Below, piece after piece: positions 1 through 13,397 of a stretch of 13,397 nucleotides of DNA. The translations under genes were made by a program, and so were the position numbers. Location of the stretch: the IMG/VR virus record IMGVR_UViG_2671180674_000013. One strand, written 5' to 3'. The stretch comes from a virus (taxonomy: Duplodnaviria; Heunggongvirae; Uroviricota; Caudoviricetes). A model generated the notes under the pieces. It had not been told where the DNA came from. It was given only the letters and a program-made list of their open reading frames with translations, and ran no database searches. Every line of letters starts with the position of its first letter. The first letter of the stretch is position 1.

Positions 1-378
1 ATGCAGATGAACCCCCAGAATACTCAACCGCAAATAATGAACTATGACCCGAATCTGACGTCGTGCGGACGCATGGCAAAACAAACCGTTCGATTAACTT
101 TCGGACTATGGGAATACCGCGAAACATTCGAAGTTACTGTCGGCGGCAATCTGACCGGACTGGATGTTATCAGTTGCGCTATTGAAAGCCTGTACGCAAC
201 GCTACCTTATGAAGAAGTCAGGGATAAGCGTACTGGGGAAACGGATATCATGGCCACCATTAATATTGGCGAACTGATATGCCAGGATGAAGACCTGTCC
301 GGAGAGCTCTGGCTTGCCGGGATGCTTGTCTCAGCAGAAATTATCAGTATTGAACCCGCTACAAACATACGACTCTGA
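1..378 (+). CDS. hypothetical protein (prophage accessory gene upstream of xis-int module)
   Basis: Open 125-codon frame from ATG at base 1 to TAA at 376-378. No family recognised by eye. The true start could lie upstream of the window. Confidence 0.4.
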   Translation: MQMNPQNTQPQIMNYDPNLTSCGRMAKQTVRLTFGLWEYRETFEVTVGGNLTGLDVISCAIESLYATLPYEEVRDKRTGETDIMATINIGELICQDEDLSGELWLAGMLVSAEIISIEPATNIRL

Positions 379-409
379 AGTTCTCACTATTCAGAGAGCA
401 GGAGAAAAA

Positions 410-652
410 ATGTTCGCTCTGATTAATCAAGGACAACTGTATACCGACAGTGCCGGTTACCCGGTAAAAATTGTTCGCTGCATAAACAACACCGTGTTGT
501 ACAGAAGAATGGACGGGCAAACACAATCGGTAAAAATGAACGATTTTAATGAATCGTTTGAACGGATCGATCACCAGGAATACCGACAAATTCTGGCAGA
601 AACAGAACAGGAAGCTCATCTGAAAAAATTACGTGCCATGAAAAGGAAGTAA
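410..652 (+). CDS. hypothetical small protein (80 aa)
   Basis: AGGAG at 400-404, 5-nt spacer, ATG at 410, stop TAA 650-652. The longer 287-start version in the ORF track overlaps the previous ORF and has no RBS. Confidence 0.4.
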   Translation: MFALINQGQLYTDSAGYPVKIVRCINNTVLYRRMDGQTQSVKMNDFNESFERIDHQEYRQILAETEQEAHLKKLRAMKRK

Positions 653-655
653 AGA

Positions 656-802
656 ATGAATAAAGCGTTTGAGCTATGGGTACGCCAGCGTTACGGCAAT
701 CGCTATGACCTGACGCGAGATGTTGACGGTTTCTACTGTCGCGAAATTGTGAGACGAATGTTTGAAGTGTGGTGCCACTGCCGTGGGCTGAATGTTGTGT
801 GA
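656..802 (+). CDS. hypothetical small Cys/His-containing protein (48 aa)
   Basis: AGGAAG at 644-649, 6-nt spacer, ATG 656, TGA 800-802. Below the ORF-track length cutoff, found by reading. It sits 4 nt after the previous stop, suggesting an operon. Contains C-x-x-x... and C-H-C residues. Confidence 0.3.
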   Translation: MNKAFELWVRQRYGNRYDLTRDVDGFYCREIVRRMFEVWCHCRGLNVV

Positions 803-810
803 GGTGATGT

Positions 811-1020
811 ATGGGACTGGATTGCGTGCCTATATCAACCTACTGCCGCGACGCGGGAGAAACGGTTGATGCCGTTAACAAACGGATACAAAGAGGAATC
901 TGGAAAGAAGGGATTCATGTATTAAAAGTCGACGGAGTTAAAGAACGTTGGGTCGACTTAATGGAGATTTCAAAATGGGCAAGAAAGAACAAGGATCATT
1001 ATCTCTCCCTAGAGGAGTAA
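811..1020 (+). CDS. excisionase-like small DNA-binding protein (Xis-like)
   Basis: 69-aa basic protein directly upstream of and overlapping the integrase start, the typical xis-int arrangement. GAGGTGA RBS lies 5 nt before ATG 811. Family assignment is by position and size, not by a recognised motif. Confidence 0.5.
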   Translation: MGLDCVPISTYCRDAGETVDAVNKRIQRGIWKEGIHVLKVDGVKERWVDLMEISKWARKNKDHYLSLEE

Positions 1021-2147
1021 CTATTCGCCAGCATAAAACTGGCAGCACCCTGGTTATCACTTTTACATATAAAGGGGTTCTGTGTCGGGAACCCCTCTCC
1101 AGAATGGAAGTAAATGCGCGCGGCGTGAAGTACGCCGAGCGTCTGCTGGGAGAAATAAAAAATCAGATTATCGATGGTACCTTCGAATATGCAAAATACT
1201 TCCCCAACTCCCAAAAGCTGGAGTTGTTCGGGGGAGTGAAAAAAAACAAAAATATAAAATCTTACCTGGATGAATACCTGATTATCTGCCAGAACCGTAA
1301 CCTGTCACCATCGACAATTAGAGGTTATGAAAAATGCCTGTCGGCGCTGTCAGCATTGCATAAATTTCATGTATCAGAACTGACACCTGCAGTACTAAAA
1401 AACTGGATCGCCAGCAGAAAAACAAAACTGAAAACTATCCGCAATAATCTTTCATTCCTGCGCAGCGCCATAGATGAAGCGGTGACCGATGGTTTGTTAA
1501 CAATAAATCCTGTCACGCTGGTCAGCGCCAGCCGGTATCACGTATTGGACAACACACCAGGCAGTGATGATTACGAGGTCGATCCTTTTACACCAGCGGA
1601 GACGGCAGCAATCTATGACGCCTGTCATTACCCGGAATGGCGAAATCTGTTTCGCTTTGCCTTTAATACCGGACTGCGCAGCTCAGAATTGTGCGCGTTG
1701 CGCTGGACAGATATAGACTTCATCGGCAACACTGCACATGTCCAGACTGCAAGCGTAGTCGGGGTAATCAAAAGCACCAAAACAAAAGCCGGCACTCGCA
1801 AAGTACAACTGAACAACGAAGCACTGGCAGCTCTTCAGGCACAAAAGCCCTACACGGCGCTAAAAAGCGACTTCATATTCAGCGATCCGAAAACTCGCGC
1901 TCCTTGGGCAAACGCAGATGCGATCCGCAAAAAAGCCTGGGTACCGACCCTTAAAAAGGCTGGAGTACGCTATCGCAATCCGTACCAGACACGCCACACG
2001 TTCGCCACTCGGCACATTAGCCAGGGTGTTAACCTGTTCTGGCTTGCTGGTCAGATGGGGCATAAAGGACCGGAAATGCTGTTCAGACATTACGGCTCTT
2101 ACCTTGCAGAATACGATGGAAAAACGGCGATTTCTGCAACCCCGTAA
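975..2147 (+). CDS. int: tyrosine recombinase / phage integrase (lambda-type, N-terminal arm-binding domain)
   Basis: N-terminus LSLPRGVTIRQHKTGSTLVITFTYKGVLCRE resembles the arm-binding domain of enterobacterial prophage integrases. C-terminus carries R...HTFATRH...LAGQMGH...RHYGSY, matching the tyrosine-recombinase R-H-R-Y box. Start placed at ATG 975 (GGAG at 963-966); the ORF track starts earlier at a TTG (948). Confidence 0.88.
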   Translation: MGKKEQGSLSLPRGVTIRQHKTGSTLVITFTYKGVLCREPLSRMEVNARGVKYAERLLGEIKNQIIDGTFEYAKYFPNSQKLELFGGVKKNKNIKSYLDEYLIICQNRNLSPSTIRGYEKCLSALSALHKFHVSELTPAVLKNWIASRKTKLKTIRNNLSFLRSAIDEAVTDGLLTINPVTLVSASRYHVLDNTPGSDDYEVDPFTPAETAAIYDACHYPEWRNLFRFAFNTGLRSSELCALRWTDIDFIGNTAHVQTASVVGVIKSTKTKAGTRKVQLNNEALAALQAQKPYTALKSDFIFSDPKTRAPWANADAIRKKAWVPTLKKAGVRYRNPYQTRHTFATRHISQGVNLFWLAGQMGHKGPEMLFRHYGSYLAEYDGKTAISATP

Positions 2148-2279
2148 CGGCAAAATTTTTCAAAATGTTGTACAGAATCAGGACGTTACCGGGACAACAA
2201 TATGTACGTAAAATGCACATAATGCCTTGCGTGAAAAAATAAATCGTTCGTATTCAATAAACTATGTGAATCCCGATCA

Positions 2280-2306
2280 CGGGTTCAACTCCCGCCAGCT
2301 CCACCA
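2280..2306 (+). other. attachment-site core: 27-nt copy of the 3' end of tmRNA gene ssrA (ends ...GCCAGCTCCACCA)
   Basis: CGGGTTCAACTCCCGCCAGCTCCACCA is identical to the 3' terminus of enterobacterial ssrA as I recall it. Sequence upstream of 2280 does not continue the ssrA match, so this is a displaced or partial 3' segment, not a full gene. Confidence 0.75.
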
Positions 2307-2341
2307 AATCATGATCCGGATACGTCCGGTGAAGTACAGAA

Positions 2342-2374
2342 AGCCCGCACGGCACAAGCCCTGCGGGCTTTTTT
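2342..2374 (+). terminator. rho-independent terminator (ssrA-type)
   Basis: Stem AGCCCGCA (2342-2349) pairs with TGCGGGCT (2362-2369), followed by a T-run 2369-2374. Confidence 0.7.
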
Positions 2375-2416
2375 GTGTCTGTCATTGTCCGAGAACATCC
2401 GGCTAAATCCAGAGAA

Positions 2417-2472
2417 AATTGGTACACGTTTAGGTACACGCTATACTGTGGTCCATTAAACGTGTACCAATT
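2417..2472 (+). promoter_or_regulatory. putative int promoter embedded in a 16-bp perfect inverted repeat (operator-like)
   Basis: AATTGGTACACGTTTA (2417-2432) and TAAACGTGTACCAATT (2457-2472) are exact reverse complements. A third GGTACACG copy is at 2433-2440. Between them lie a -35-like TTGGTA (2419-2424), a 17-bp spacer and a -10-like TATACT (2442-2447). The RBS GGAAGG (2475-2480) and ATG 2490 follow. Confidence 0.45.
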
Positions 2473-2489
2473 ATGGAAGGGATCCAGAC

Positions 2490-3680
2490 ATGGCGCGTAT
2501 CACACGCCCCCTCACTAACAATGAAATCCTTAAAGCCAAACCCCGTGAAAAAGACTTCACCCTTCATGATGGTGATGGCTTGTTCTTGCTCGTCAAAACC
2601 ACTGGTAAAAAACTCTGGCGCTTCCGTTATCAACGACCGGGAAGCAGCAGCCGCACAAATTTGAGTCTCGGCTCATATCCTGCCCTTACACTCGCAGCAG
2701 CTCGTCAGATACGCGACCAGCACTTAACCACGCTTGCGCAAGGTATGGATCCGCAGCAGCAACAAGAGCAGGCATCAGAACAACGTCAGATTGAGTTGGA
2801 TAGTATTTTCTCAACTGTGGCCGCCAACTGGTTCAAAATGAAGAGCAAAAGTGTCACTGAAGACTACGCTAAAGATATTTGGCGCTCTTTGGATAAGGAT
2901 GTGTTCCCTGCAATAGGCGCGATTCCTGTTCAGGAGATTAAGGCCAGAACGATAGTTGAAGCGTTGGAACCAATCAAAGCACGAGGTGCATTAGAAACTG
3001 TTCGTCGCTTGGTCCAGCGCATTAACGAAATAATGATTTACGCAGTTAACACAGGCCTGATTGATGCTAATCCGGCATCGGGTGTCGGAATGGCATTTGA
3101 GAAACCGAAAAAGCAAAACATGCCGACACTTCGACCAGAAGAATTGCCAAAGCTCATGCGCTCTTTGGTGATGTCGAATCTCTCAGTTTCGACCCGCTGT
3201 CTAATTGAATGGCAACTCCTGACGCTCGTGCGTCCATCTGAGGCTTCTGGCGCTCGGTGGGTAGAGATCGATCTTGATGCCAGGCTCTGGACAATTCCAG
3301 CAGAGCGGATGAAAGCAAATCGAGAGCATATCGTTCCTTTATCAACCCAGGCGTTAGAAATTTTGGAAGTAATGAAGCCTATTAGTGCTCATCGTGAACA
3401 TGTCTTCCCCAGTAGAAATGATCCCAAACAGCCAATGAATAGCCAGACGGCGAACGCTGCCTTAAAGCGGATTGGTTATGGTGGAAAGTTGGTTGCACAT
3501 GGTTTACGTTCAATTGCGAGTACAGCTATGAACGAGGCGGGATTCAATGCTGACGTCATTGAGTCTGCTCTAGCACACTCTGATAGAAATGAAGTTAGAA
3601 GAGCTTATAATCGTTCTACATATCTAGATAAAAAAATAATACTATTTAACTGGTGGGGTGCACAGGTCTATAAGAAGTAA
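2490..3680 (+). CDS. int: P4-family tyrosine integrase (CP4-57 IntA-like)
   Basis: 396 aa. N-terminal MARITRPLTNNEILKAKP...DGDGLFLLV...KLWRFRY and C-terminal HGLRSIASTAMNEAGF...ALAHSDRNEVRRAYNRSTYL match the conserved blocks of P4/CP4-57-type integrases as I remember them. It sits about 180 bp downstream of the ssrA 3' core, as intA does relative to ssrA in E. coli K-12. Confidence 0.9.
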   Translation: MARITRPLTNNEILKAKPREKDFTLHDGDGLFLLVKTTGKKLWRFRYQRPGSSSRTNLSLGSYPALTLAAARQIRDQHLTTLAQGMDPQQQQEQASEQRQIELDSIFSTVAANWFKMKSKSVTEDYAKDIWRSLDKDVFPAIGAIPVQEIKARTIVEALEPIKARGALETVRRLVQRINEIMIYAVNTGLIDANPASGVGMAFEKPKKQNMPTLRPEELPKLMRSLVMSNLSVSTRCLIEWQLLTLVRPSEASGARWVEIDLDARLWTIPAERMKANREHIVPLSTQALEILEVMKPISAHREHVFPSRNDPKQPMNSQTANAALKRIGYGGKLVAHGLRSIASTAMNEAGFNADVIESALAHSDRNEVRRAYNRSTYLDKKIILFNWWGAQVYKK

Positions 3681-3683
3681 ATA

Positions 3684-3705
3684 GAGCCTGCTGAAATGCA
3701 GGCTC
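3684..3705. terminator. bidirectional hairpin between convergent int and cargo gene
   Basis: GAGCCTGC (3684-3691) pairs with GCAGGCTC (3698-3705) around a 6-nt loop. It lies between the int stop (3680) and the minus-strand stop (3713), with T-rich flanks on both strands. Confidence 0.55.
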
Positions 3706-3712
3706 CACTTCT

Positions 3713-6349
3713 TTATTCAGTAAATATTACATCATCAATATTAAAAGACACTTTAAAATTAGGGTAGAGTTTCAATATTACCTTTTCGAAAATCTCATCA
3801 TCATCATTTAAATTTCTTGCTCTTGAATAAAGACGGTAATTATCTTTTGTTATTTGTTTAATTTCGATATGACAAGCATCATTACTATCAAAGCCTCTAA
3901 AGAAGGTAAAACTATCCAAACTTACAGCATAAATATTATTCAAGGCATTTTCGTCCTCAAAGAAGTAAGTTAACTTATAATCCTTATAAACTTCATAATT
4001 ATAGTTCTTAACTGAATTTTTATTCACAAATAATATATAATTACTCTTCTCTATATCAGCATCATTAAATTTTAAAAAACGCCCTCCTGCTTTGACACAA
4101 TTGAATAATTGCTGCTTATATATAGATATGATTCCATCTCCATATAGCCCAGCACTTGATAAATATGAAACATCATCAACCACGCCTAAAAACTCACGTT
4201 TTGATGGATAAAAAATTAGTTCACTTGTTTTATGGCATATAGGAAGCTTGGATAAATCAACATTTAATGTACTAACAAGCCATTTATTTAAATGTAAATT
4301 CACATCTATTTTAAAGCGTAATACAATGTTCTTATCCATTGTCGATTTTATAACTTTTCTCGTAACTTCTTTGCTCTTATACTCCAACATCATATCAAAT
4401 TTATCTTTAATTAAATCCACTTCCCTTTTCACTTCATTATTATCATACCCCATAGATGTTACCATTATATCTAATTCAGGAGACTCACACGCTTTAATTA
4501 GCAGGTGATAGTCGTTAGAACTAAATCCCACCACATCGACTAATTTACGCCAGTCGTACAAGTATCTCAGGTTAAACCCTCTACGTTTTACAGCCAAAAC
4601 CAATAATATAAAGACTAATGCTCTTATTGCATAGTGATATTCTGTAACAGTATAGGCCTCACCTTCCGGGAGATTTCTAATTCGTTGTTCATCTATACTT
4701 GCACGAATTCTTTCTTCATAAGAACCAAATAACATTCCATATAACTCAACTTCATCTGTATAATTAGAAAAGATAGCAAGATCGCTCCACAATTTGCTAG
4801 CATTAATTATCGCATCGATCTCCACGTCACTTTTATTGTCAGTTTGAATTGCGCTCCAACGCATCTGAAGAACAGTTAAAACAAACCGCTGAATTTTAAA
4901 TATAACAGAAATAATTTCGCTAGCATTTCTTTTTTCTAAATTCAAATACTTGACACTAAGATGCTTAGTTCCTGCATTAAAGTACTCCCCCCAAAACATT
5001 ATCGCACTGTAATCTAACTCATTGCATGCAGATTCAATCAACCCTTTAATGACTTCATAATAGTCTGCGTTATCATCGTGATAACTCAAATAACTATTCA
5101 AGGTATCTTCATGATTTTTGATAAAAGCATTAAAGTCATCTCTATTTAAAGAGAGTTTTGCTATCTGTATTATAAATTCTAACGCGGCAGTTTTCTTTCT
5201 AAGATTAACATTCAACTCAGAAAAATTATTCATTAACTCATCAATAGAATTTTTTTTCACATCCGAATTATTTAAATATTGATATGACAGTCCAAAAGCT
5301 ATATCAAAAGGATATGCTGAAACATCCCCATTAACTAAGCATGAAAAAACATTAATAGCATTTCTTATTGACTCTCTGTTATTTTCCAAAAGAGCACTAT
5401 ACAGATAGATGACAACCCCATTAATTAATTCATCATAATGATTAATCACTTTAAATTCATTATCTGTTATTAACACACCAACAATCAAAGAAGAAACTTT
5501 CTTTGATGATTTTTTATCCAAAATTTTTTTAGCCGTATAATTAACTTCTATAGTTTTGCTTCCACTACTATGCAGGTTAATATTTGGCACAATAATTTCA
5601 TATTCATCCAATAAACCTTTTATCTTCATTCCATTTAAAAAATTGTTTAGTTTATGGAATTTCTCTAAATCTATGTCAACAGTCAAAACATTATCACCCC
5701 CATATATCCCTATGCTATATGGTTGTTGCTTTTGCATTTTCATTTTGCCATAAGAATAATATCCATTTGGTAAATCTCTAACTAGATTTAAAATCTTATC
5801 ATGTAATTCAGAGTTAGCATCCTCTAACAAGGTATAACCCTTGACAAGACTTGAGCAGTGAGATTGTAAATACTCAACAGCGAAGTTCTTATTACGTGAC
5901 ATGTTAAATAATTTCAAGTATGTTTTAAAATACTTCAAAAGAAAATACATTGATAGTAATTGTGACACCACATACTGAGCAATACCACCACCAAAAACAA
6001 AAAAGAAGAATGAAATTATCAAGGTTGATATTGCATCAATACCAAACTGCACAAGGTTGATTTCATCCAGTATCTTTTTCCTAATATAACTTTCCAACGC
6101 ACGAGGTGAGGATTTATTAACAGCATCAACAGTCACACTCATAAAAGTTAATGACAACGCACTGATTGTACCGTGTATACCTAAGGAGACCCCCCAAGCA
6201 CTAAATATCCAATCAAACCCCAATTTTTTTAAATCACTAGAATTAGAAAACAACCACCACCACTCATTTTTACAAAAAAAAACAAGAATACATAAAGTAA
6301 AAAAAATAAAAAAACCAGAGATATAACAAAACAATCTTTTACCCATCAT
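3713..6349 (-). CDS. large membrane-anchored protein of unknown function; candidate anti-phage defence / abortive-infection effector
   Basis: 878-codon uninterrupted frame. Strongly AT-rich: a few sampled lines give roughly 20-32% G+C, against visibly GC-rich neighbours. The first ~145 residues contain 3-4 hydrophobic helices (LFCYISGFFIFFTLCILVFFC, FDWIFSAWGVSLGIHGTISALSLTFMSV, FGIDAISTLIISFFFFVFGGGIAQYVV). The remaining ~730 residues are hydrophilic and Asn/Lys/Tyr-rich with no canonical Walker A, HNH or PD-(D/E)xK motif seen by eye. AAGGA lies just upstream of the ATG. Confidence 0.8.
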   Translation of the reverse strand: MMGKRLFCYISGFFIFFTLCILVFFCKNEWWWLFSNSSDLKKLGFDWIFSAWGVSLGIHGTISALSLTFMSVTVDAVNKSSPRALESYIRKKILDEINLVQFGIDAISTLIISFFFFVFGGGIAQYVVSQLLSMYFLLKYFKTYLKLFNMSRNKNFAVEYLQSHCSSLVKGYTLLEDANSELHDKILNLVRDLPNGYYSYGKMKMQKQQPYSIGIYGGDNVLTVDIDLEKFHKLNNFLNGMKIKGLLDEYEIIVPNINLHSSGSKTIEVNYTAKKILDKKSSKKVSSLIVGVLITDNEFKVINHYDELINGVVIYLYSALLENNRESIRNAINVFSCLVNGDVSAYPFDIAFGLSYQYLNNSDVKKNSIDELMNNFSELNVNLRKKTAALEFIIQIAKLSLNRDDFNAFIKNHEDTLNSYLSYHDDNADYYEVIKGLIESACNELDYSAIMFWGEYFNAGTKHLSVKYLNLEKRNASEIISVIFKIQRFVLTVLQMRWSAIQTDNKSDVEIDAIINASKLWSDLAIFSNYTDEVELYGMLFGSYEERIRASIDEQRIRNLPEGEAYTVTEYHYAIRALVFILLVLAVKRRGFNLRYLYDWRKLVDVVGFSSNDYHLLIKACESPELDIMVTSMGYDNNEVKREVDLIKDKFDMMLEYKSKEVTRKVIKSTMDKNIVLRFKIDVNLHLNKWLVSTLNVDLSKLPICHKTSELIFYPSKREFLGVVDDVSYLSSAGLYGDGIISIYKQQLFNCVKAGGRFLKFNDADIEKSNYILFVNKNSVKNYNYEVYKDYKLTYFFEDENALNNIYAVSLDSFTFFRGFDSNDACHIEIKQITKDNYRLYSRARNLNDDDEIFEKVILKLYPNFKVSFNIDDVIFTE

Positions 6350-6457
6350 TCGTCCTTATGTTTTTTGGGTATTGTAAACCAAAGATAAAACCCTCTATGG
6401 TTTTGCATGCCCTGTATATTGATTTGTGTAAATTAGCTCATTACCAATTAGCGCGCA

Positions 6458-6476
6458 ATGCTCTCCCCGCCACGCC
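6458..6476 (-). other. cos-like site (P2/186/P4-type 19-nt cohesive-end sequence)
   Basis: The minus strand reads GGCGTGGCGGGGAGAGCAT. This matches the P2/186-family cohesive-end sequence as I recall it (P2 GGCGAGGCGGGGAAAGCAC, 16/19; a 186-type variant matches more closely). It lies about 170 bp downstream of the psu-like gene, where cos sits in P4. Confidence 0.5.
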
Positions 6477-6576
6477 TGCCCGCTTAAGAGGTCACTTTTA
6501 ATGCAGGTGCATGAACGGCCTCAGACCGCACCGGTACTGGTGTTGCGTGGGATAAAAAATACGGGGATTTGCATGC

Positions 6577-6610
6577 AAAGCCATGCACCTTATGGATGCA
6601 TGGCTTTTTT
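6577..6610 (+). terminator. terminator-like hairpin (canonical on + strand; may also act on the late operon)
   Basis: AAAGCCATGCA (6577-6587) pairs with TGCATGGCTTT (6597-6607) around a 9-nt loop, followed by TTTTTT to 6610 on the + strand. On the minus strand only 3 U follow the stem. Confidence 0.45.
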
Positions 6611-6648
6611 CGGGAAAAATAGCGGAATTTTCGGTTTTTTTTCGCGTG

Positions 6649-7215
6649 CTACCGTGCGGCCAGTTCTGCACGTCGGCGGGTGTAAATCAGGTTCTGTGCC
6701 GGGGTGAATTTCTGGCGATTATCATCCCGCGAAGCCGCATCAGGCCTGAATCCGATAGCCGTTAAAATATCGCTGTCCTGCACGGAATAATTAATTTTTT
6801 CACCTGCGGCCAGCCACACCGACAGGGCTTCACGCAGATAATCAACCGAGTGCTGCATGGCGCTCTGTTTTACTGCGGGAAGCTGTTCGTGATATCCCAT
6901 CAGCTCAGGTGCCAGCGTGGCGGCCAGCTCCGCGCCGTGCTGCTGCATAAAGTCATGGAGCCGGTTGCGGATACTGATGTGCTGCACCTCCTCATGTGAG
7001 CGGATATAGCGACCGGCGGCCTGATTAATTTCCCACTTTTTCACGTCGATATTGTCGCGCAAATCCTGCATTCTGAGCGGGATTTGTTCGTCACCGGCAA
7101 GGAGCTGTTCACGGTATTCCCGTTCAAGGTCTGCCAGTTCGGCTTTACGTTTCAGCCAGGTGTTTTTGTTCGTCTGACAGGCCTCAAAGGCCTGCTGTAT
7201 GGTCACAGTGGTCAC
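6649..7215 (-). CDS. psu: Psu-like protein (polarity suppression / capsid decoration), by position and size
   Basis: 188 aa, last gene of the minus-strand late operon, immediately before the cos-like site. P4 Psu is about 190 aa and occupies the same position (sid-delta-psu-cos). This is not a verified sequence match. Confidence 0.5.
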   Translation of the reverse strand: MTTVTIQQAFEACQTNKNTWLKRKAELADLEREYREQLLAGDEQIPLRMQDLRDNIDVKKWEINQAAGRYIRSHEEVQHISIRNRLHDFMQQHGAELAATLAPELMGYHEQLPAVKQSAMQHSVDYLREALSVWLAAGEKINYSVQDSDILTAIGFRPDAASRDDNRQKFTPAQNLIYTRRRAELAAR

Positions 7216-7230
7216 GTGTCTCTCTCCTGA

Positions 7231-7470
7231 TTAATGCCGGAACGGCGAGCTGTAGCAGCCCTGTACTTTACGCGGCGGCGGTGGCGTCACCGGGGCGGGG
7301 TCGGGTTTCTCCGGTGCGGCACGTATCACACCGTCAACCGACTCGATGGTGCGGAAAGTGGCCGAGCATTCGATATTGGTACACTGGTGATAACGCTGTT
7401 TGACGTTTTCCGACAGATAACGGCTGGTACGGACGTGCGCGGTATTTTTGCAGAACGGGCAGTGAAACAT
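7231..7470 (-). CDS. ogr: Ogr/Delta-family zinc-finger late transcriptional activator
   Basis: MFHCPFCKNTAHVRTSRYLSENVKQRYHQCTNIECSATFRTIESV carries the C-x2-C...C-x4-C spacing and the conserved RTSRY, RYHQC and CSATF blocks of P2 Ogr as I recall them. Single-domain, 79 aa. Confidence 0.85.
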   Translation of the reverse strand: MFHCPFCKNTAHVRTSRYLSENVKQRYHQCTNIECSATFRTIESVDGVIRAAPEKPDPAPVTPPPPRKVQGCYSSPFRH

Positions 7471-7473
7471 GAT

Positions 7474-8217
7474 TCAGCCCTCTGCCTGTTCGTGGGATTT
7501 TTCTGCCAGTTCAGCGGCAAGTTTCATCCGTCTGGCCGGGCTTCTTAACAGCGCCATATCAACCCCGGTTATGACCGGGCGATTCATGCCCGTTACGGAC
7601 AGGACCGGCTCCTGCTCCATATCAAAATGATACAGGGCTGACTGCATATTCAGGGCATCACCCAGCTCGCGGGTCACGGTCGCACGCGGCGAGGTATCTC
7701 CACTCATTTCCAGCGACCGTATACGCAACAGAAAGGCACGTAACAGTGCAGGATTGATACCGGTCAGCGCCTTCTTCCACTCGCTGTTGGCGTAGGTAGT
7801 GAACGCTTTTTCATGGGCGCTGATATAAGCCGTACCGGAGGAGCATGCGCCAAGCATGGCGTGGCTTTTGTCTTTCTCCAGCTCGGTAATCAGACCGGTG
7901 AACTCATCAGCCAGTTCGCGGCTGGCGATACGTTTGCTGTGTTCAGCTTTCAGTTCAGGAGTGAGGTTGCCGCGCAGAGTTCGAAAGCGGCTGCGCCAGT
8001 CCTGTTCGGCCTGTGCGCTTTCACTGAGGGCGGTCTGTCGTTCCTGCTCACAACGCTGAATGGAAGCCTCAATGTCGCTGAGTTTACCCATGCAGGCCGA
8101 GTGTGCGTCTTTTGCTTCGTTAAGTGCGGCCAGCGCACCGGCAATACGTTGTTCCGCGCCTTCATCCTGTTTACTGATAACGGTCTGCATGGCTTTGATA
8201 ATGAGTTCGGGTTTCAT
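7474..8217 (-). CDS. Sid-like protein (capsid size determination scaffold), by position
   Basis: First gene of the late operon, just upstream of the ogr/delta-like gene. Start placed at the ATG complementary to 8215-8217, which has GGAG 9 nt upstream and gives 247 aa (P4 Sid is about 244 aa). The ORF track extends it to 8283 without an RBS and into the putative promoter. Confidence 0.45.
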   Translation of the reverse strand: MKPELIIKAMQTVISKQDEGAEQRIAGALAALNEAKDAHSACMGKLSDIEASIQRCEQERQTALSESAQAEQDWRSRFRTLRGNLTPELKAEHSKRIASRELADEFTGLITELEKDKSHAMLGACSSGTAYISAHEKAFTTYANSEWKKALTGINPALLRAFLLRIRSLEMSGDTSPRATVTRELGDALNMQSALYHFDMEQEPVLSVTGMNRPVITGVDMALLRSPARRMKLAAELAEKSHEQAEG

Positions 8218-8289
8218 GTTCAGGTTCTCCGTATGTTCAACCTGAAATGATTCTGACGCCTCCTGCACAACAACACGATTCATTGCCGT

Positions 8290-8307
8290 TGTCAGAGTGC
8301 TGGCACA
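8290..8307. promoter_or_regulatory. TGT-N12-ACA dyad: candidate Ogr/Delta binding site of the late (Psid-like) promoter
   Basis: TGTCAGAGTGCTGGCACA at 8290-8307. The dyad centre is about 80 nt upstream of the proposed sid-like start, which would place it near -55 relative to a plausible transcription start, as in P2/P4 late promoters. Confidence 0.45.
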
Positions 8308-8385
8308 AACAGACCTTAAAATCAGGCTGGCCAGAGAAAGGTCGCAGGAAAACCTTACTCACCGTTTGTTTTTTTACTTATAACT

Positions 8386-8488
8386 ATTCACCACTGTTCA
8401 CCTTAAATAAAAAGATAAGTAATACAGTAAGTTAAATGGTGAACAGTTGAAGGTCTGACTGTTCACCGTCTGTTCACCACTGTTCACC
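8386..8488. repeat. iteron cluster of TGTTCACC octamers (P4 crr-like alpha-binding region)
   Basis: Perfect TGTTCACC at 8395-8402, 8460-8467, 8471-8478 and 8481-8488. Inverted copy GGTGAACA at 8438-8445. Degenerate ATTCACC at 8386-8392. Confidence 0.7.
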
Positions 8489-8570
8489 CTTCAGTTTTGC
8501 TCTGGCTATATCATTTAGACTTTATTACGATTGAAAACGAAGAATATATAACTAAAAGAGATATTAATTG

Positions 8571-8627
8571 CTGCATTGTAATGCAGTGATTTGCATATGT
8601 TTGCCAGCGTTTGCCTTTGTTTGCCAG
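8571..8627. promoter_or_regulatory. palindrome plus helically phased GTTTGCC repeats in the promoter region of the alpA-like operon
   Basis: Perfect 16-nt palindrome CTGCATTGTAATGCAG at 8571-8586. GTTTGCC at 8599, 8609 and 8619 (10-bp phasing), with TGTTTGCCAG repeated at 8598-8607 and 8618-8627. Confidence 0.4.
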
Positions 8628-8754
8628 AGCGAAAAGTCAATGTTTGTTTCCCCGAAAATCTCACATGACCTGAGGGAAAATATAAACATAATAAGGAGCT
8701 ACCCGAAGCCGGACGGACACGACCGGCACTGTATGGACTTTGTGAGGTAGCCCG

Positions 8755-9021
8755 ATGCACACCGCTTTTTCTTCCCCGTCTTCTGCCCCTGCCGCGCCGC
8801 TGATGCCGGTTTCTGATACCGTTCACGAGCGCTTTATCCGTCTGCCCGAAGTGATGCATCTGTGCGGCCTGTCCCGCTCGACCATTTACGACCTCATCAG
8901 CCGGGAAGCCTTCCCGAAACAAATCTCCCTCGGCGGAAAAAACGTGGCGTGGGCGCAGTCTGAAATCACTGCATGGATGGCGGATCGCATTGCCGAACGT
9001 AACCGGGGCTATGACGCATGA
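8755..9021 (+). CDS. alpA: AlpA-family phage transcriptional regulator (MerR-like HTH)
   Basis: The segment [47 protein letters not shown] matches the AlpA helix-turn-helix pattern (RLP.V....G.SR.TIY......FP.....G...V.W...EI..W). GAGG lies 8 nt before ATG 8755. Confidence 0.7.
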
Positions 9022-9148
9022 TGATGGCCGCTCAGCAAAAAGCCCCTTTTTCTGGCTTGCTTCTTTTCGCCGTTTCCAGGTATAGTTTTCCCGCTGTCGC
9101 AAAATCGGCAGCCGGGATTGGCGTCCCGTTTACAACATTGGCGACACC

Positions 9149-9171
9149 GGACGCGCCTTGCGTCTTTTTTT
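9149..9171 (+). terminator. short-stem intrinsic terminator in the leader downstream of the alpA-like gene
   Basis: GACGC (9150-9154) pairs with GCGTC (9160-9164) around a 5-nt loop, followed by seven T (9165-9171). The stem is only 5 bp, so it is weak or conditional. Confidence 0.35.
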
Positions 9172-9374
9172 GTGTCTATGCCTCAGCGCATCCATTTTTG
9201 ATCCAGAGATTTATCTGTCTATGGATCCTTCGTGTAATGGTGGCTCAGGCGGGGGCTTCTCACGAAGCGCCGGTTTCCAATGTTGCCGGTTACGCCAACC
9301 CCGTCTGGGCTACCACCAGTGAAATTGGCGTTTCCAGTGGTAGCAGTCACATGCAAACATTGGAGGTTGCCACT

Positions 9375-9569
9375 ATGGCTACGACCCTCACCCCGTCACA
9401 CCCGCAGTTTGTCTTTGTGTTTGCCGCCGTTCGTCGCGCAGACCGTAAACCCCGTATTTGCATGCTGCGCACCGTTGCCGGTGACGAGCACGCCGCACGC
9501 CTTTCCCTCGTTCGCGATTACATCCTCTCGTTCGCTGGCCGTCTGCCGGTTGCGGAGGTGCGCGCATGA
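9375..9569 (+). CDS. hypothetical small protein (64 aa)
   Basis: Strong GGAGG at 9362-9366, 8-nt spacer, ATG 9375. The longer 9018-start form in the ORF track has non-protein-like composition upstream of this ATG. Confidence 0.5.
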
Positions 9570-9793
9570 GACACACCACCATTACTGCCCGTGACCTCGA
9601 ATGTCTGGAGCATATGCGCAATGTCGGCCAGCTCGTCAGCGACCTGATGCAGGTGCAGGACTGCGCCACCGTTCGTCGTGACCCTGCGCAGCAGTTACAG
9701 CTCACCTCCGTGATTTACCTCATGACCGCCCAGCTCGACGGCGTGGTCGAACGCTGCAATCAGCAGTGGCTGACCGGGGAGGGTAACGTATGA
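9566..9793 (+). CDS. hypothetical protein (75 aa), translationally coupled
   Basis: ATGA start/stop overlap with the preceding ORF at 9566-9569; acidic, helical-looking sequence. Confidence 0.5.
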
Positions 9794-10110
9794 AAAAGCC
9801 ATTACCACCCGTATTACGCGCCGCGCTGTATCGTCGCGCCGTGGCCTGTGCATGGCTGACCCTGTGCGAACGCCAGCACCGCTACCCGCACCTCACCCTC
9901 GACGCGCTGGAAAGCGCCATTGCCGCCGAGCTGGAGGGCTTCTACCTGCGCCAGCACGGCGAGGAAAAAGGCCGTCAGATTGCCTGTGCCCTGCTCGAAG
10001 ATTTAATGGAAGCCGGACCACTGAAAGCCGCCCCGTCGCTGTCCTTTCTCGGGCTGGCCGTGATGGATGAACTCTGCGCCCGTCATATCACCGCACCGGC
10101 ACTGCACTGA
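9790..10110 (+). CDS. hypothetical protein (106 aa), translationally coupled
   Basis: ATGA overlap at 9790-9793. Directly precedes the primase gene, in the position of the P4 epsilon/accessory genes. Confidence 0.5.
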
Positions 10111-10121
10111 GGGAAAACACC

Positions 10122-12455
10122 ATGAAAATGAACGTAACGGACACCGTAAAACAGGCGTGCGGCCACTGGCCGCGCATTCTCCCTGCGCTGGGTGTGAAGG
10201 TGATTAAAAACCGCCATCAGTCCTGCCCGGTGTGCGGCGGCTCCGACCGCTTTCGCTTTGACGATAAAGAGGGGCGCGGGACGTGGTTCTGTAACCAGTG
10301 CGGCGCGGGAGACGGCCTGAAACTGGTAGAGAAAGTGTTCGGCATGACCCCGTCAGAGGCGGCCGGGAAGGTGAACGCCGTGACCGGCAACCTGCCGCCG
10401 GTTTCCCCGGAAGTGACTGCGGCCGCAGAGGCCGAAACTGTGGCCGACCGCAAAGCGGCGGCCGCGCTGGCCGTCAGGATCATGGAGAAAACCCGACCGG
10501 CCACCGGCAATGCCTACCTCACCCGCAAGGGTTTCCCCGACCGGGAATGTCTGACGCTCACCGTCATGCATAAAACCGGCGGCGTGACGTTCCGCGCCGG
10601 TGATGTGGTTGTCCCGCTGTATGAGGATACCGGCACACTGGTTAACCTTCAGCTTATCAATGCTGACGGTCTCAAGCGCACCCTGAAAGGCGGTCAGGTC
10701 AAAGGTGCATGCCATACCATTGAAGGGCAAAAACAGGCGGGAAAACGCCTGTGGATTGCGGAGGGTTATGCGACCGCGCTCACCGTGCATCACCTGACCG
10801 GGGAAACCGTCATGGTGGCGCTGTCCTCCGTGAACCTCCTTTCTCTGGCGAGCCTTACCCGTCAGAAGTCCCCGGCCTGTCAGATTGTGCTGGCCGCTGA
10901 CCGTGACCTGAACGGCGACGGCCAGAGCAAAGCCGCTGCGGCCGCAGATGCCTGTGAGGGCATTGTTGCCCTGCCGCCGGTGTTCGGTGACTGGAATGAT
11001 GCGTTTATGCAGAAAGGTGAAGAGGCCACGCGGAAAGCCATTTATGACGCCATCCGGCCACCGGCGCAAAGTCCGTTTGATACCATGAGCGAAGCGGAAT
11101 TTACCGCCATGAGCGCCAGCGACAAGGCCTTGCGGGTGCATGAGCATTACGGCGAAGCGCTGGCGGTGGATGCGAACGGCCAGCTCCTGTCCCGCTATGA
11201 AAACGGCATCTGGAAAAATATCCCTGCCGCCACTTTCTCACGGAATGTGGCTGACTTATTCCAGCGTCTGCGCGCCCCGTTCTCGTCCGGGAAAATTGCC
11301 TCGGTAGTGGAGACCCTGAAACTGATTATTCCGCAGCAGGATACACCGGCACGTCGTCTGATTGGCTTTCGCAACGGGGTACTCGATACCCAAAGCGGCG
11401 TATTCAGCCCGCACCATAAATCGCACTGGCTGCGCACGCTGTGCGACGTGGATTTTACCCCGCCGGTGGACGGGGAAACGCTGGAGACTCACGCGCCAAA
11501 CTTCTGGCGCTGGCTCGACCGTGCAGCCGGTAAAAACCCACAAAAACGCGACGTGATTCTGGCCGCGCTTTTTATGGTGCTGGCGAACCGTTACGACTGG
11601 CAGCTCTTTCTCGAAGTGACCGGTCCCGGCGGGAGTGGCAAAAGTATTCTGGCCGAAATCGCGACCCTGCTCGCCGGAGAGGATAACGCCACGTCGGCCG
11701 ACATCGACACGCTGGAAGACCCGCGCAAGCGAGCATCCCTGATTGGCTTCTCGCTAATCCGTCTGCCTGACCAGGAAAAATGGAGCGGTGACGGCGCAGG
11801 ACTCAAGGCAATCACCGGCGGCGATGCGGTCTCGGTTGACCCGAAATACCAGAACCCCTATTCCACGCATATTCCGGCTGTAATTCTGGCCGTGAACAAC
11901 AACCCGATGCGCTTCACCGACCGCAGCGGCGGCGTGTCGCGTCGCCGGGTGATTATTCACTTCCCGGAGCAGATTGCCCCGGAGGAACGCGACCCGCAGC
12001 TCAGGGATAAAATTGCGCGCGAGCTGGCCGTCATTGTGCGCCAGCTTATGCAGAAATTCAGCGACCCGATGACCGCGCGCACACTGCTCCAGTCGCAGCA
12101 GAACTCCGACGAGGCACTCAGCATCAAGCGCGATGCTGACCCGACGTTTGATTTTTGCGGCTATCTGGAAATGCTGCCGCAGACCAACGGGATGTTTATG
12201 GGGAATGCCAGCATCATCCCGCGTAATTATCGTAAATATCTCTATCACGCGTATCTGGCCTATATGGAGGCTAACGGCTACAGGAACGTGCTCAGCCTGA
12301 AAATGTTCGGGCTGGGGCTGCCCATGATGCTGAAAGAGTACGGCCTGAATTATGAGAAGCGGCACACCAAGCAGGGGATACAAACCAATCTGTCGCTGAA
12401 AGAGGAAAGCTACGGAGACTGGTTGCCGAAGTGCGATGACCCCACAGCAACATAA
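10122..12455 (+). CDS. P4 alpha-type bifunctional primase/helicase
   Basis: 777 aa, the same length as P4 alpha. N-terminal zinc-ribbon C-P-V-C-G-G...C-N-Q-C-G, a Toprim-like LWIAEGYATALTVH...AADRD segment, and a Walker A GPGGSGKS (from VTGPGGSGKSIL) in the C-terminal helicase half. GC-rich, with iterons following. Confidence 0.9.
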   Translation: MKMNVTDTVKQACGHWPRILPALGVKVIKNRHQSCPVCGGSDRFRFDDKEGRGTWFCNQCGAGDGLKLVEKVFGMTPSEAAGKVNAVTGNLPPVSPEVTAAAEAETVADRKAAAALAVRIMEKTRPATGNAYLTRKGFPDRECLTLTVMHKTGGVTFRAGDVVVPLYEDTGTLVNLQLINADGLKRTLKGGQVKGACHTIEGQKQAGKRLWIAEGYATALTVHHLTGETVMVALSSVNLLSLASLTRQKSPACQIVLAADRDLNGDGQSKAAAAADACEGIVALPPVFGDWNDAFMQKGEEATRKAIYDAIRPPAQSPFDTMSEAEFTAMSASDKALRVHEHYGEALAVDANGQLLSRYENGIWKNIPAATFSRNVADLFQRLRAPFSSGKIASVVETLKLIIPQQDTPARRLIGFRNGVLDTQSGVFSPHHKSHWLRTLCDVDFTPPVDGETLETHAPNFWRWLDRAAGKNPQKRDVILAALFMVLANRYDWQLFLEVTGPGGSGKSILAEIATLLAGEDNATSADIDTLEDPRKRASLIGFSLIRLPDQEKWSGDGAGLKAITGGDAVSVDPKYQNPYSTHIPAVILAVNNNPMRFTDRSGGVSRRRVIIHFPEQIAPEERDPQLRDKIARELAVIVRQLMQKFSDPMTARTLLQSQQNSDEALSIKRDADPTFDFCGYLEMLPQTNGMFMGNASIIPRNYRKYLYHAYLAYMEANGYRNVLSLKMFGLGLPMMLKEYGLNYEKRHTKQGIQTNLSLKEESYGDWLPKCDDPTAT

Positions 12456-12463
12456 CCTCACTC

Positions 12464-12490
12464 AGACCGGCATCAGCCGGTCTTTTCCTT
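12464..12490 (+). terminator. rho-independent terminator after the primase gene
   Basis: AGACCGG (12464-12470) pairs with CCGGTCT (12477-12483) around a 6-nt loop, followed by TTTTCCTTTC. Confidence 0.6.
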
Positions 12491-12507
12491 TCTGACCATT
12501 GCCACAG

Positions 12508-12792
12508 GGTGAACAATCCACTGTTCACCCTTCACCGTATATTCACCCTGTATCACCATGAAATTATTGATAAAAAACCAGAGGTGAACAGTGTGAATAG
12601 TAAAACCTGAAAAAACTTTTTATCCCTCCACCACATCGCCTGACCGGGCGCATCCAGAGCGAGAAAAAAACACAAAGGTGAAGAGTCGACTGTTCACTCT
12701 TCACCAACTCATCACCATTTATCTTTATGATTTAAAATAGAAAATAAGCATGGTGAACAGTGTGAACAGTTAAATGCAAAAAAACTTTTTTT
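12508..12792. repeat. iteron cluster of TGTTCACC/GGTGAACA octamers with A/T-tract elements (P4 ori-like)
   Basis: GGTGAACA at 12508-12515, 12583-12590 and 12752-12759. TGTTCACC at 12522-12529. Near-copies at 12531-12537, 12541-12548, 12677-12684, 12691-12698, 12700-12705 and 12761-12769. Inverted repeat GGTGAAGAGT (12677-12686) / ACTCTTCACC (12696-12705). A5-6CT5-7 tracts at 12609-12623 and 12776-12792. Confidence 0.7.
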
Positions 12793-12858
12793 GAGTATGA
12801 TGTAGCTCTCCATACTTTATGGAAAGATCCAAGTTAGCTGAAAGCCTCACCAAGACAG

Positions 12859-12877
12859 CACGTTAATTCGTAACGTG
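12859..12877. promoter_or_regulatory. inverted repeat (operator-like) just upstream of the terminal AT-rich ORF
   Basis: CACGTTA (12859-12865) and TAACGTG (12871-12877) flank a 5-nt spacer, about 20 nt before ATG 12897. Confidence 0.3.
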
Positions 12878-12896
12878 TTAAGCAAAAGGGAATTTT

Positions 12897-13397
12897 ATGG
12901 GGACTACTTTGCTTCAAGAAAACCATGAAAAAATTTTAAACATACTAAATGAAGCTAAAGATGTGGCGCTAAGGTATTACAAATTAACCAATAAGCCTCT
13001 CGGAATCACTGGAGAAATAGCTGAACATGAAGCTGCAACTCTTCTCGGGTTGTCACTATGTTCAGCACGTCAGTCCGGATACGATGCGACTGAGATTTTG
13101 GACGGGAAAGAATATAGAGTTCAAATCAAAGGTCGATATATGCCTGATCCTAAAAAAGTCTCTGCGAGAATTGGTGCTATTGATATATCTAAGCCATTTG
13201 ATTCTGTTCTTTTAGTTTTGCTTGATGAAAATTATGATGCTTTTGCCATGTATGAAGCATCACGAGATGTAGTAGTCGCAGCTCTTCAAGCTCCGGGGTC
13301 AAAGTCTAGAAATGAGCGAAATCAACTAGGCATAGCAAAATTCAAGTCCATTAGCCGTCTCCGCTGGAGCAAGGTTGCTGAACCTGAGATCCTTTAA
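12897..13397 (+). CDS. hypothetical protein (166 aa), AT-rich accessory gene at the alpha-proximal end of the element
   Basis: Complete frame from ATG 12897 to TAA 13395-13397, with an AGGGA-type RBS upstream. Composition is markedly more AT-rich than the adjacent primase gene. No family recognised. The spaced acidic/basic residues (GEIAEHE...GYDATE...RVQIKGR) are weakly reminiscent of a PD-(D/E)xK-like core, which is speculative. Confidence 0.6.
   Translation: MGTTLLQENHEKILNILNEAKDVALRYYKLTNKPLGITGEIAEHEAATLLGLSLCSARQSGYDATEILDGKEYRVQIKGRYMPDPKKVSARIGAIDISKPFDSVLLVLLDENYDAFAMYEASRDVVVAALQAPGSKSRNERNQLGIAKFKSISRLRWSKVAEPEIL

Follow-up and report, generated by a model that had tools for sequence, protein, structure and literature searches.

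The window analyzed here, by which we mean the whole stretch of 13,397 nt, carries two tyrosine integrase genes separated by a short piece of ssrA, the tmRNA gene. This arrangement raises the question of whether the locus is a single mobile element with two integrases or the point at which two elements meet at one integration site. An earlier note on this DNA, made from the sequence alone, proposed that two different elements share the site, with the exact 27-nt 3' terminus of ssrA lying between their integrase genes.

The ssrA fragment and the genes on either side

The ssrA piece occupies positions 2280-2306 on the plus strand (CGGGTTCAACTCCCGCCAGCTCCACCA) and matches nucleotides 337-363 of ssrA exactly over 27 nt, the reference being the 363-nt gene annotated in E. 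coli ETEC1732, C5, K-12, ATCC 25922 and others. This 27-mer is present in a single copy in the window, and a control with 200 shuffles gave 0 matches at three or fewer mismatches. The gene does not continue upstream of 2280, as the earlier note had said: the preceding 40 nt bear no likeness to ssrA, no full-length ssrA lies directly upstream, ARAGORN detected neither tRNA nor tmRNA genes in the window, and Rfam returned only a sub-threshold fragment match over 2267-2306 (15 bits, gathering score 47). We annotate 2280-2306 as a displaced ssrA 3' fragment, whose orientation relative to the prophage is that of ssrA in C5 and ETEC1732. An Rfam match to IsrM at 2297-2374 was rejected as an sRNA, since its 39.8 bits lie far below the gathering score of 376; it is a partial alignment to the model that runs across the ssrA end and the terminator behind it.

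Upstream of the fragment, the window contains the end of a lambda-like prophage. Its last small early-left genes (1-802, plus strand: DUF5406 at 1-378, DUF4222 at 410-652 and a 48-aa ORF at 656-802, assigned from Pfam and PHROG matches) are 100% identical to C5, and their order recurs in prophages of ETEC1732, C5, 2013C-3264 and cq9. They are followed by a gene for a 69-aa excisionase (xis, 811-1020, plus strand) that overlaps the start of the integrase gene by 46 nt. We identified Xis from PHROGs (phrog_2917 'excisionase', 2e-40), from its position and from the annotated excisionase of phage phiES15, to which it is 87% identical; searches of Pfam and NCBIfam gave no match. The integrase gene (975-2147, plus strand, 390 aa) is transcribed toward the att core, and we placed its start at the ATG at 975, as in RefSeq, where the mechanical ORF list starts at a TTG at 948. 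The product contains Arm-DNA-bind_2 (PF12167) and Phage_integrase domains (tyrosine recombinase catalytic domain PF00589, 70.7 bits), has the motifs 'TRHTFATRH' and, at the C-terminus, 'FRHYGSY', and is 87-89% identical to the integrases of phages phi467, LMessi, phiES15 and PhiR12, relative to which this uninterrupted 390-aa ORF is full length. Coordinates and strand of both ORFs agree with the earlier description of a xis-int pair transcribed toward the ssrA core. The label 'lambda-type' that came with that description holds for the layout and the kind of prophage but not for the protein families, as Int has an Arm-DNA-bind_2 domain and Xis is unlike lambda Xis.

Between this integrase gene and the fragment (2148-2279, plus strand) lies the P arm of the prophage attR. 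It shows 100% identity to C5 through 2279, and its homologue in the free phage LMessi is the DNA that separates int from attP. The sequence AAATGCAC at 2211, which recurs in the P' arm, is a candidate arm-type binding site. The prophage in the source genome could be a remnant.

Downstream of the fragment lies a P4-like satellite. Its left (P') arm (2307-2489, plus strand) is found unchanged 3' of intact ssrA in genomes with the satellite only (E2, L029-L034 and L037), and contains a small hairpin (2316-2329), a promoter-like site found by consensus scan (2419-2447) and repeats of GGTACACG at 2421 and 2433 on the plus strand and at 2461 on the minus strand; this repeat also occurs at the right end of the satellite in KMi029. 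An intrinsic terminator, made of a hairpin and a T-run, lies at about 2340-2374 (2356-2370 by consensus scan), and the fold of 2307-2380 has a free energy of -33.8 kcal/mol (z = -5.0). This terminator had been taken for that of ssrA; it is present, but it belongs to the satellite arm, since the same sequence lies 3' of ssrA wherever the satellite is alone. At the empty site of ATCC 25922, another flank with its own terminator is found downstream of ssrA. The terminator behind ssrA thus comes from whichever element sits there.

The satellite integrase gene (2490-3680, plus strand, 396 aa) is transcribed away from the core. Its product contains Arm-DNA-bind_3, Phage_int_M and Phage_integrase domains (PF00589, 114 bits), is full length relative to its homologues, scores 578.8 bits against NF007246 (cut-off 434) and is 60% identical to K-12 IntA. 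It is a member of the P4/CP4-57 (IntA) subfamily, in agreement with the P4-family integrase in the CP4-57 arrangement that had been proposed.

For the rest of the satellite (3713-13397) we used the RefSeq annotation of a 99.9% identical copy in E. coli E2 together with Pfam and Rfam. It comprises an AT-rich cargo ORF of 878 aa (3713-6349, minus strand); psu, a delta-like gene and a sid-like gene, named as in the RefSeq annotation of the E2 copy, with sid assigned only from its position and the RefSeq label 'capsid protein'; a CI/C4 RNA region (9080-9320) in which Rfam C4, isrK and c4-a1b1 score above their gathering scores (C4, 78.5 bits against 45); genes for an AlpA-type HTH protein, an Icd-like protein and DUF5375; the alpha primase (10122-12455); and a 166-aa ORF, the last of the window (12897-13397). 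Pfam searches with the identical satellite genes gave Psu, Ogr_Delta and the primase domains Zn_Ribbon_Prim, Toprim and D5_N. The core gene set of a P4-like satellite (int, psu, delta, sid, alpha primase and a CI-type immunity RNA) is therefore present. A further copy of the 27-nt core, sought in the window as a mark of the satellite's right end, was not found. The window ends before the right att site; in L030, whose copy is 100% identical, attR is located about 100 nt past the last ORF, with the satellite's own ssrA fragment at about 20990-21006.

Two elements that also occur apart

The two integrases are only 26% identical in an alignment of 159 residues and differ in their arm-binding domains, and the upstream integrase is not part of the P4-like element. 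Positions 1-2279 match, at 100% identity, the last part of a lambda-like prophage of some 48 kb in E. coli C5, where the order is intact ssrA, then the prophage with the same xis-int genes and core, then a different island of the CP4-57 IntA type. Positions 2280-13397 are 100% identical over 11,118 nt to GCA_012737795.1 (L030), where intact smpB-ssrA is followed by the satellite alone, attR and ypjA. Because one part of the window matches C5 and the other L030, the two haplotypes meet exactly at the 27-mer, which the alignment identifies as the sole sequence common to both. The same 27-mer is attP in the free phage LMessi, where it comes just after a related int, 88% identical, and precedes a P' arm that matches the sequence right after ssrA in ETEC1732 and C5, and the 26-nt attP annotated in the phiES15 record consists of 26 of these 27 nt. 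Given the haplotype break at the core and an attP of this sequence in a free phage, we conclude with high confidence that the window is the inner junction of a tandem array generated by two independent site-specific integrations at ssrA of an E. coli-type chromosome, in line with the tandem integration proposed in the earlier note. The 27-mer is the putative core of the prophage attR and of the satellite attL simultaneously.

The intact ssrA that the earlier note placed at the far end of the upstream element is seen there in C5 (about 48 kb away) and in ETEC1732, which carries both elements (about 41.6 kb away). By analogy with these relatives, we infer the same full array in the source genome, with both the intact ssrA and the right-hand att site of the satellite outside the window.

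All four occupancy states of the ssrA site exist among E. coli genomes: empty in ATCC 25922, satellite only in E2, MS8320, L029-L034 and L037 (the P4-like element alone at ssrA, for which the earlier note had suggested looking), prophage only in 2013C-3264, and both elements in ETEC1732/1734, cq9, L028 and L035. Among the matches listed, all genomes with this prophage end have the annotated ssrA joined directly to the P' arm. In the four satellites directly behind ssrA for which the locus extends past attR (L029, L030, L032 and L037), ypjA comes next, with no prophage, and ypjA likewise follows a related satellite in KMi029. A helper-satellite or 'piggy-back' relationship between the two elements was set aside, as they assort independently among genomes and P4-like satellites are known to use P2-type helpers, not lambdoid ones.

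A composite element, in which both integrases move as a unit, would place the two genes side by side as well, and two phage records, LN997803 (phi467) and OK490421 (Kp4866-6), each hold a homologue of the prophage integrase followed, in the same order, by an IntA-type integrase. In both records, however, the two int genes are separated by an ssrA core. The linear phi467 record begins inside tail genes and continues into non-phage genes, that of Kp4866-6 carries the mark UNVERIFIED, and both look like prophage regions cut too generously. The free phage LMessi, moreover, has int, attP and tail-fibre genes without a second integrase, and the halves of the window are found separately at 100% identity. 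We consider a composite element very improbable; the two records appear to merge two elements. A boundary set to the base by the 27-mer is mainly an annotation matter, one that prevents a prophage and a neighboring satellite from being reported as one element.

Alternatively, the junction could have been created in assembly or by homologous recombination, through joining at the short core repeat, and the elements would then not truly be adjacent in this order. Such a genome would have three copies of the 27-nt core, and the exact pairing at 100% identity was absent from the complete genomes and contigs that we searched. An exact-pattern scan of a one-genome-per-species collection gave no match to the junction sequence, and exact-protein look-ups with both integrases returned many E. 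coli contigs (listed in 164 and 249 blocks of the collection), none of which joins both 100%-identical halves. The same junction sequence and element order are, however, present in the finished chromosomes of ETEC1732, ETEC1734 and CP122609. In the closest genome with both elements, ETEC1732, the prophage part is 95.8% and the satellite part 99.9% identical. Assembly k-mers and reads are usually longer than 27 nt, which is also a very short length for RecA-dependent exchange. There is thus scarcely any likelihood that the junction arose in this way.

Order of arrival and consequences for excision

The sequence identities, the haplotype break, the attP of a free phage and the three other occupancy states are observed, whereas catalysis, crossover positions, arrival order and independent excision are inferred. 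On the chromosome, the intact ssrA would lie to the left, outside the window, followed in turn by some 40-50 kb of lambda-like prophage (with xis-int and the P arm last), the 27-nt copy and the satellite, which starts with its own arm, terminator and integrase. As the phage attP bears the same 27 nt as ssrA, Int-catalyzed recombination between attP and attB would restore ssrA in full at the ssrA-proximal end (attL) and leave the old 27-nt end at the int-proximal attR. The block of exact identity between the satellite's attL and attR (CCGCCAGC, window positions 2292-2299) places the predicted crossover of the satellite integrase inside the same 27 nt, and in this way the 27-mer would double as prophage attR core and satellite attL core. 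A degenerate ssrA end, 'ACTCCGCCAGC...ATCATGATTGG', is expected about 100 nt to the right of 13397.

The satellite was probably resident first, with the phage entering the intact ssrA copy afterward. In the reverse order, the phage would have lysogenized an empty ssrA and the satellite would then have entered the displaced 27-nt copy at the prophage attR. The 27-mer may suffice as attB for this, as it holds the whole identity-block region and a further 12 nt on the left side; either restored core may serve a second element (PMC7192596); and the same prophage occurs alone in 2013C-3264. The satellite, however, is found alone in 7 of 10 distinct contexts, more often than paired. In ETEC1732, the satellite is broken by IS elements and the prophage looks complete, which suggests that the satellite is the older resident. 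Furthermore, the prophage ends found beside a single satellite variant (99.9% identical) share only 95.8% identity with one another, a pattern consistent with phages having arrived more than once beside a satellite already in place. These observations are not decisive; they leave the reverse order as the less probable of the two, though one with a real chance of being correct.

In either order, both elements retain an integrase and arms of their own and should therefore still be able to excise singly, and we saw no sign in the sequence that excision of one depends on the other. In K-12, excision of CP4-57 deletes ssrA T357 and inactivates tmRNA (PMC10107115). This nucleotide is window position 2300. 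Right-end copies from satellites at least 99.9% identical to this one are defective at T357, reading GCCAGC followed by CCCACCA, CCACCA, CCA or CA, so excision of a lone satellite should damage ssrA. In the tandem, the satellite's left att site would be the displaced 27-nt fragment only; its excision would then spare the working ssrA and scar the prophage attR. Later excision of the prophage could carry the scar into ssrA, and tmRNA inactivation would depend on the order in which the elements leave. We offer only tentatively, and think it rather doubtful, the suggestion that prophage insertion uncouples satellite excision from tmRNA integrity. If it does, occupancy and element order at ssrA would decide whether satellite excision switches off trans-translation.

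Comparison with known systems

Phage lambda integrates between gal and bio, not at ssrA. The prophage in the window resembles it in that xis overlaps the start of int, both genes are read toward attP and they end the early-left operon of a lambdoid prophage. Lambda Int, however, has Arm-DNA-bind_1 (PF09003) where the prophage Int has Arm-DNA-bind_2, the two being 27% identical over 185 residues, and lambda Xis belongs to Exc (PF07825), with no significant similarity to the window's Xis. The lambda family models recognize lambda's own proteins and neither protein of the window.

A closer likeness is to the phiES15-type phages (Cronobacter phage phiES15 and Escherichia phages LMessi, PhiR12 and phi467), which share the layout xis, int, attP. 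With Int 87-89% and Xis 87% identical and 26-27 nt of the same ssrA 3' end in attP, the module in the window is of this type. In phiES15 and phi467, int is separated from attP by one or two additional ORFs, and the rest of the prophage is mosaic, with lambda-like structural genes in C5 and HK97-like ones in ETEC1732. phi467 carries stx.

The satellite side resembles CP4-57 of K-12, in which a same-family integrase, IntA, lies just 3' of the ssrA end and is transcribed away from it; CP4-57 also supplies a similar terminator, and its attR copy of the ssrA end is degenerate. It differs in gene content, as the element here carries the psu, delta, sid and alpha genes of a P4-like satellite in place of the CP4-57 gene set, and in that the satellite's left att site here is a 27-nt pseudo-fragment rather than a functional gene. 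P4 integrates in a tRNA-Leu gene, whereas the target here is ssrA. In gene content the element agrees with P4 and P4-like elements (PMC8628076), which have int, psu, delta, sid, CI-type RNA and alpha primase and, next to int, a slot whose cargo varies.

Tandem arrays at tRNA and tmRNA genes have been described before. That a second element may enter either restored core and so produce such arrays is stated in PMC7192596 with reference to Williams 2003 ('Traffic at the tmRNA gene'), a work that PMC3603311 also cites. Islander lists 125 tandems and finds the tmRNA gene to be the most strongly enriched of the targets (PMC4383910), and the differing integrases by which Islander/TIGER define a tandem are found here as well (26% identity over 159 residues). 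As in such arrays, two elements that are unrelated and have a tyrosine integrase each lie here on either side of a displaced 3' fragment of the target, which has the gene's own orientation, and the target is the tmRNA gene. The tandem in the window, which recurs in public genomes, does not differ in kind; reading it as such an array is correct but ordinary, the partners here being a prophage with a phiES15-type Int and a P4-like satellite.

The ssrA 3' end and the upstream integration module

The 27-nt sequence at 2280-2306 (+), CGGGTTCAACTCCCGCCAGCTCCACCA, exactly reproduces nt 337-363 of ssrA (363 nt) as annotated in several complete E. coli genomes. It occurs once in the window, and the exact ssrA 3' terminus claimed in the earlier note is thus borne out. 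A 25-mer taken from it, with up to 3 mismatches allowed, had no matches in 200 shuffles. Pairing of GCGGG with CCCGC is visible within the 27-mer and, on the usual arm assignment of the tRNA-like fold, the fragment begins at base 2 of the T stem and comprises the T loop (2284-2290), the 3' strand of the acceptor stem (2296-2302) and ACCA (2303-2306), with ssrA T357 at window 2300. As the earlier note also stated, ssrA does not continue upstream of 2280: the DNA on that side showed no relation to ssrA in sequence comparison, and ARAGORN found no tmRNA gene in the window. Rfam returned only a sub-threshold fragment hit. Separately, Salmonella IsrM gave a match far below threshold at 2297-2374 (+) (39.8 bits vs a gathering score of 376), covering the ssrA 3' fragment and the terminator supplied by the element; IsrM itself may have arisen from a displaced copy of the ssrA end of this kind.

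Upstream of the core, and transcribed towards it as had been proposed, lie a 69-aa Xis ORF (811-1020; PHROG 2917 "excisionase", 2e-40; 87% identity to the annotated excisionase of Cronobacter phage phiES15) and a 390-aa tyrosine integrase (975-2147; Arm-DNA-bind_2 and Phage_integrase), whose start overlaps the xis ORF. This integrase is 87-89% identical to those of phi467, LMessi, phiES15 and PhiR12. The phiES15 record has an annotated 26-nt attP of the same sequence as the 27-mer, and in the genome of the free phage LMessi int is followed by the same 27-mer and then by "cttttgatagg...", the sequence found directly after ssrA in E. coli ETEC1732 and C5. These sequence matches identify the upstream module as a genuine integration module of a phage that targets ssrA. 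The pattern is the textbook one, in which the 3' end of the gene to be targeted is part of attP; integration of the prophage would thereby rebuild ssrA at attL and shift the former ssrA end to attR. The description of this module as lambda-type holds for its layout, with overlapping xis and int genes directed towards attP, but not for its protein family: the lambda Int carries Arm-DNA-bind_1 and the lambda Xis is Pfam Exc, models that neither window protein matches, and window and lambda Int and Xis align poorly or not at all. As a side observation, the ssrA core also lies between a phiES15-type and an IntA-type integrase gene in two deposited "phage" records, phi467 (LN997803, 30140-34231) and Kp4866-6 (OK490421, 4454-4480), which appear to be prophage regions extracted for deposition together with the integrase of the neighbouring island; in phi467, which contains stxA and stxB, int is broken into two ORFs.

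The downstream satellite and its predicted crossover

The second integrase (396 aa, 2490-3680) is transcribed away from the core, as claimed, and has the P4/CP4-57 domain order (Arm-DNA-bind_3, Phage_int_M, Phage_integrase), an NF007246 match of 579 bits and 60% identity to K-12 IntA. At 26% identity over 159 residues, the prophage and satellite integrases are by this measure only distantly related. The interval from the core to the second int holds a strong hairpin with a T-run, the terminator (~2340-2374) that the earlier note had assigned to ssrA itself. This assignment fails, since 2307-2489 is found base for base behind intact ssrA wherever the satellite sits alone, making the stretch, terminator included, the satellite left arm. 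At the empty site of ATCC 25922, ssrA has a different flank (atcatgattggacgg...), which includes a separate terminator farther along, and the prophage puts a third hairpin resembling a terminator after the rebuilt gene. Within the left arm, GGTACACG repeats at 2421, 2433 and 2461, which recur at the satellite right end in KMi029, are candidate arm-type sites.

Right-end copies of the satellite align to ssrA over CCGCCAGC (window 2292-2299) and vary thereafter, which places the predicted satellite crossover inside the same 27-mer, 3' of where the prophage identity block starts. At the P4-family right att sites compared (L029-L033 and L037 ~20990-21010; L006 22960-22990; L011 13940-13960; L013 28155-28175), variation of the displaced ssrA end is confined to the seven bases TCCACCA, with conserved flanks on both sides. 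Satellites at least 99.9% identical have GCCAGC followed by CCCACCA, CCACCA, CCA or CA; K-12 has CCACCA after GCCAGC, KMi029 has CCCCA and cq9 CA, and MS8320 retains TCCACCA intact. This variation may indicate where the crossover or overlap lies, or may reflect repeated cycles of excision and integration. CP4-57 excision removes ssrA T357 and inactivates tmRNA (PMC10107115), and the right-end variants at the T357 position in K-12 and in the near-identical satellites are consistent with this deletion. The left site of the stacked satellite is only the displaced fragment, so by extension from the published CP4-57 work its excision may spare the working ssrA, a consequence of modest scope and one concrete form of the earlier note's suggestion that stacking may affect excision.

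Elsewhere in the satellite, 9080-9320 (+) is its P4/P1-type immunity RNA region, where the Rfam families c4-a1b1, isrK and C4 antisense RNA all match at scores that exceed the gathering score. The slot between int and psu, which holds restriction, retron, Drt3 or other defence genes in related satellites elsewhere, is occupied by an 878-aa ORF (3713-6349, -; 29-33% G+C) for which Pfam and PADLOC gave no convincing match (best, AbiEi at 1e-3). At the far end, a 166-aa ORF (12897-13397, +; RefSeq label DUF6998) matches PADLOC mREase_II, a Type II methyl-directed restriction enzyme, over its full length (1e-100). Several copies of a GGTGAACAGTGTGAACA-like motif, also seen in cq9, lie in non-coding 12490-12770 after the primase gene and may be replication-origin-type repeats.

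The two halves in other genomes

E. coli C5 matches window 1-2279 at 100% identity; there, intact ssrA is followed by a ~48 kb lambda-like prophage (Q antiterminator, terminase, portal, gpFI, G/T, J and lom genes) and the same xis-int and 27-mer, beyond which lies an island other than this satellite, carrying a CP4-57-type IntA. For window 2280-13397, a contig of GCA_012737795.1 gives 100% identity over 11,118 nt; in that contig the satellite directly adjoins intact smpB-ssrA, and on its far side come its own right att site and then ypjA. As the 27-mer is the only sequence common to these two haplotypes (alignment A1), the join between the halves is fixed at the att core to the nucleotide. Among complete genomes that carry both elements, the closest is ETEC1732 (95.8% identity in the prophage part, 99.9% in the satellite part), which contains the whole array: ssrA, a ~41.6 kb prophage, the 27-mer and a satellite broken by IS elements. 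The intact ssrA that had been presumed at the far end of the upstream element is thus seen in both C5 and ETEC1732.

Two side observations concern the prophages. An ompC-like porin gene adjoins the Q antiterminator gene in ETEC1732 (L001 8568-9665) and C5 (L014 8599-9702) and may be a lysogenic-conversion or superinfection-related gene. Upstream of the junction in GCA_030346625.1 (L028 253-2565, -, and 7514-9826, +), the early-left prophage region (with xis, DUF4222 and DUF5406 genes) occurs as two copies in inverted orientation, reflecting either a rearrangement or an assembly problem.

Occupancy of the site and probable order of arrival

The int end, P arm (phage DNA from int to core) and core of the prophage occur in 25 of 5,426 complete E. 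coli genomes. Among the matches listed, every carrier has in addition an annotated ssrA that runs straight into the P' arm, and more than half are followed by a P4-family island, not the native flank, as read from where matches stop; the island was verified in ETEC1732, cq9 and C5, and the native flank in 2013C-3264. A P4-family integrase follows the identical prophage Int in 4 of 10 distinct contexts, and the prophage precedes the identical satellite Int in 3 of 10. All four occupancy states (empty, satellite only, prophage only, both) were found, and the two elements assort independently. Because the prophage is the ssrA-adjacent member in every case seen, because ypjA and not a prophage follows satellites directly behind ssrA in all four loci running past attR (as it does the related KMi029 satellite), and because the ETEC1732 satellite shows IS decay, the likelier, though not proven, history is that the satellite was resident first and the phage entered the intact ssrA second.

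With a 300-nt junction probe, at least 80% of it aligned at ~87% identity or higher, ssrA joined to P'-arm-related sequence was found in 516 of the 5,426 genomes, far more than the 25 with this int end, and the P' arm seems to be common to several related types of prophage that target ssrA. The native flank of the empty site is also significantly similar to the P' arm of this phage family (L005 3028-3157 vs L008 4333-4462 and L014, - strand, below 40601; global alignment score 16 vs -11 ± 5 for shuffles), which points to either an old phage scar or the capture of host sequence as an attP arm.

Site-specific integration is well established to give rise to tandem arrays, so the ssrA stacking described here is a known kind of arrangement, correctly read, and annotated public genomes already contain it. 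Nakamura et al. refer to tandem integration via a common attB as the traditional view (PMC8112680). The E. coli/Salmonella tmRNA site holds almost all prophage genera as well as other mobile elements (Bobay et al., PMC3603311), and Islander lists 125 tandems and gives the tmRNA gene as the most enriched target (PMC4383910).
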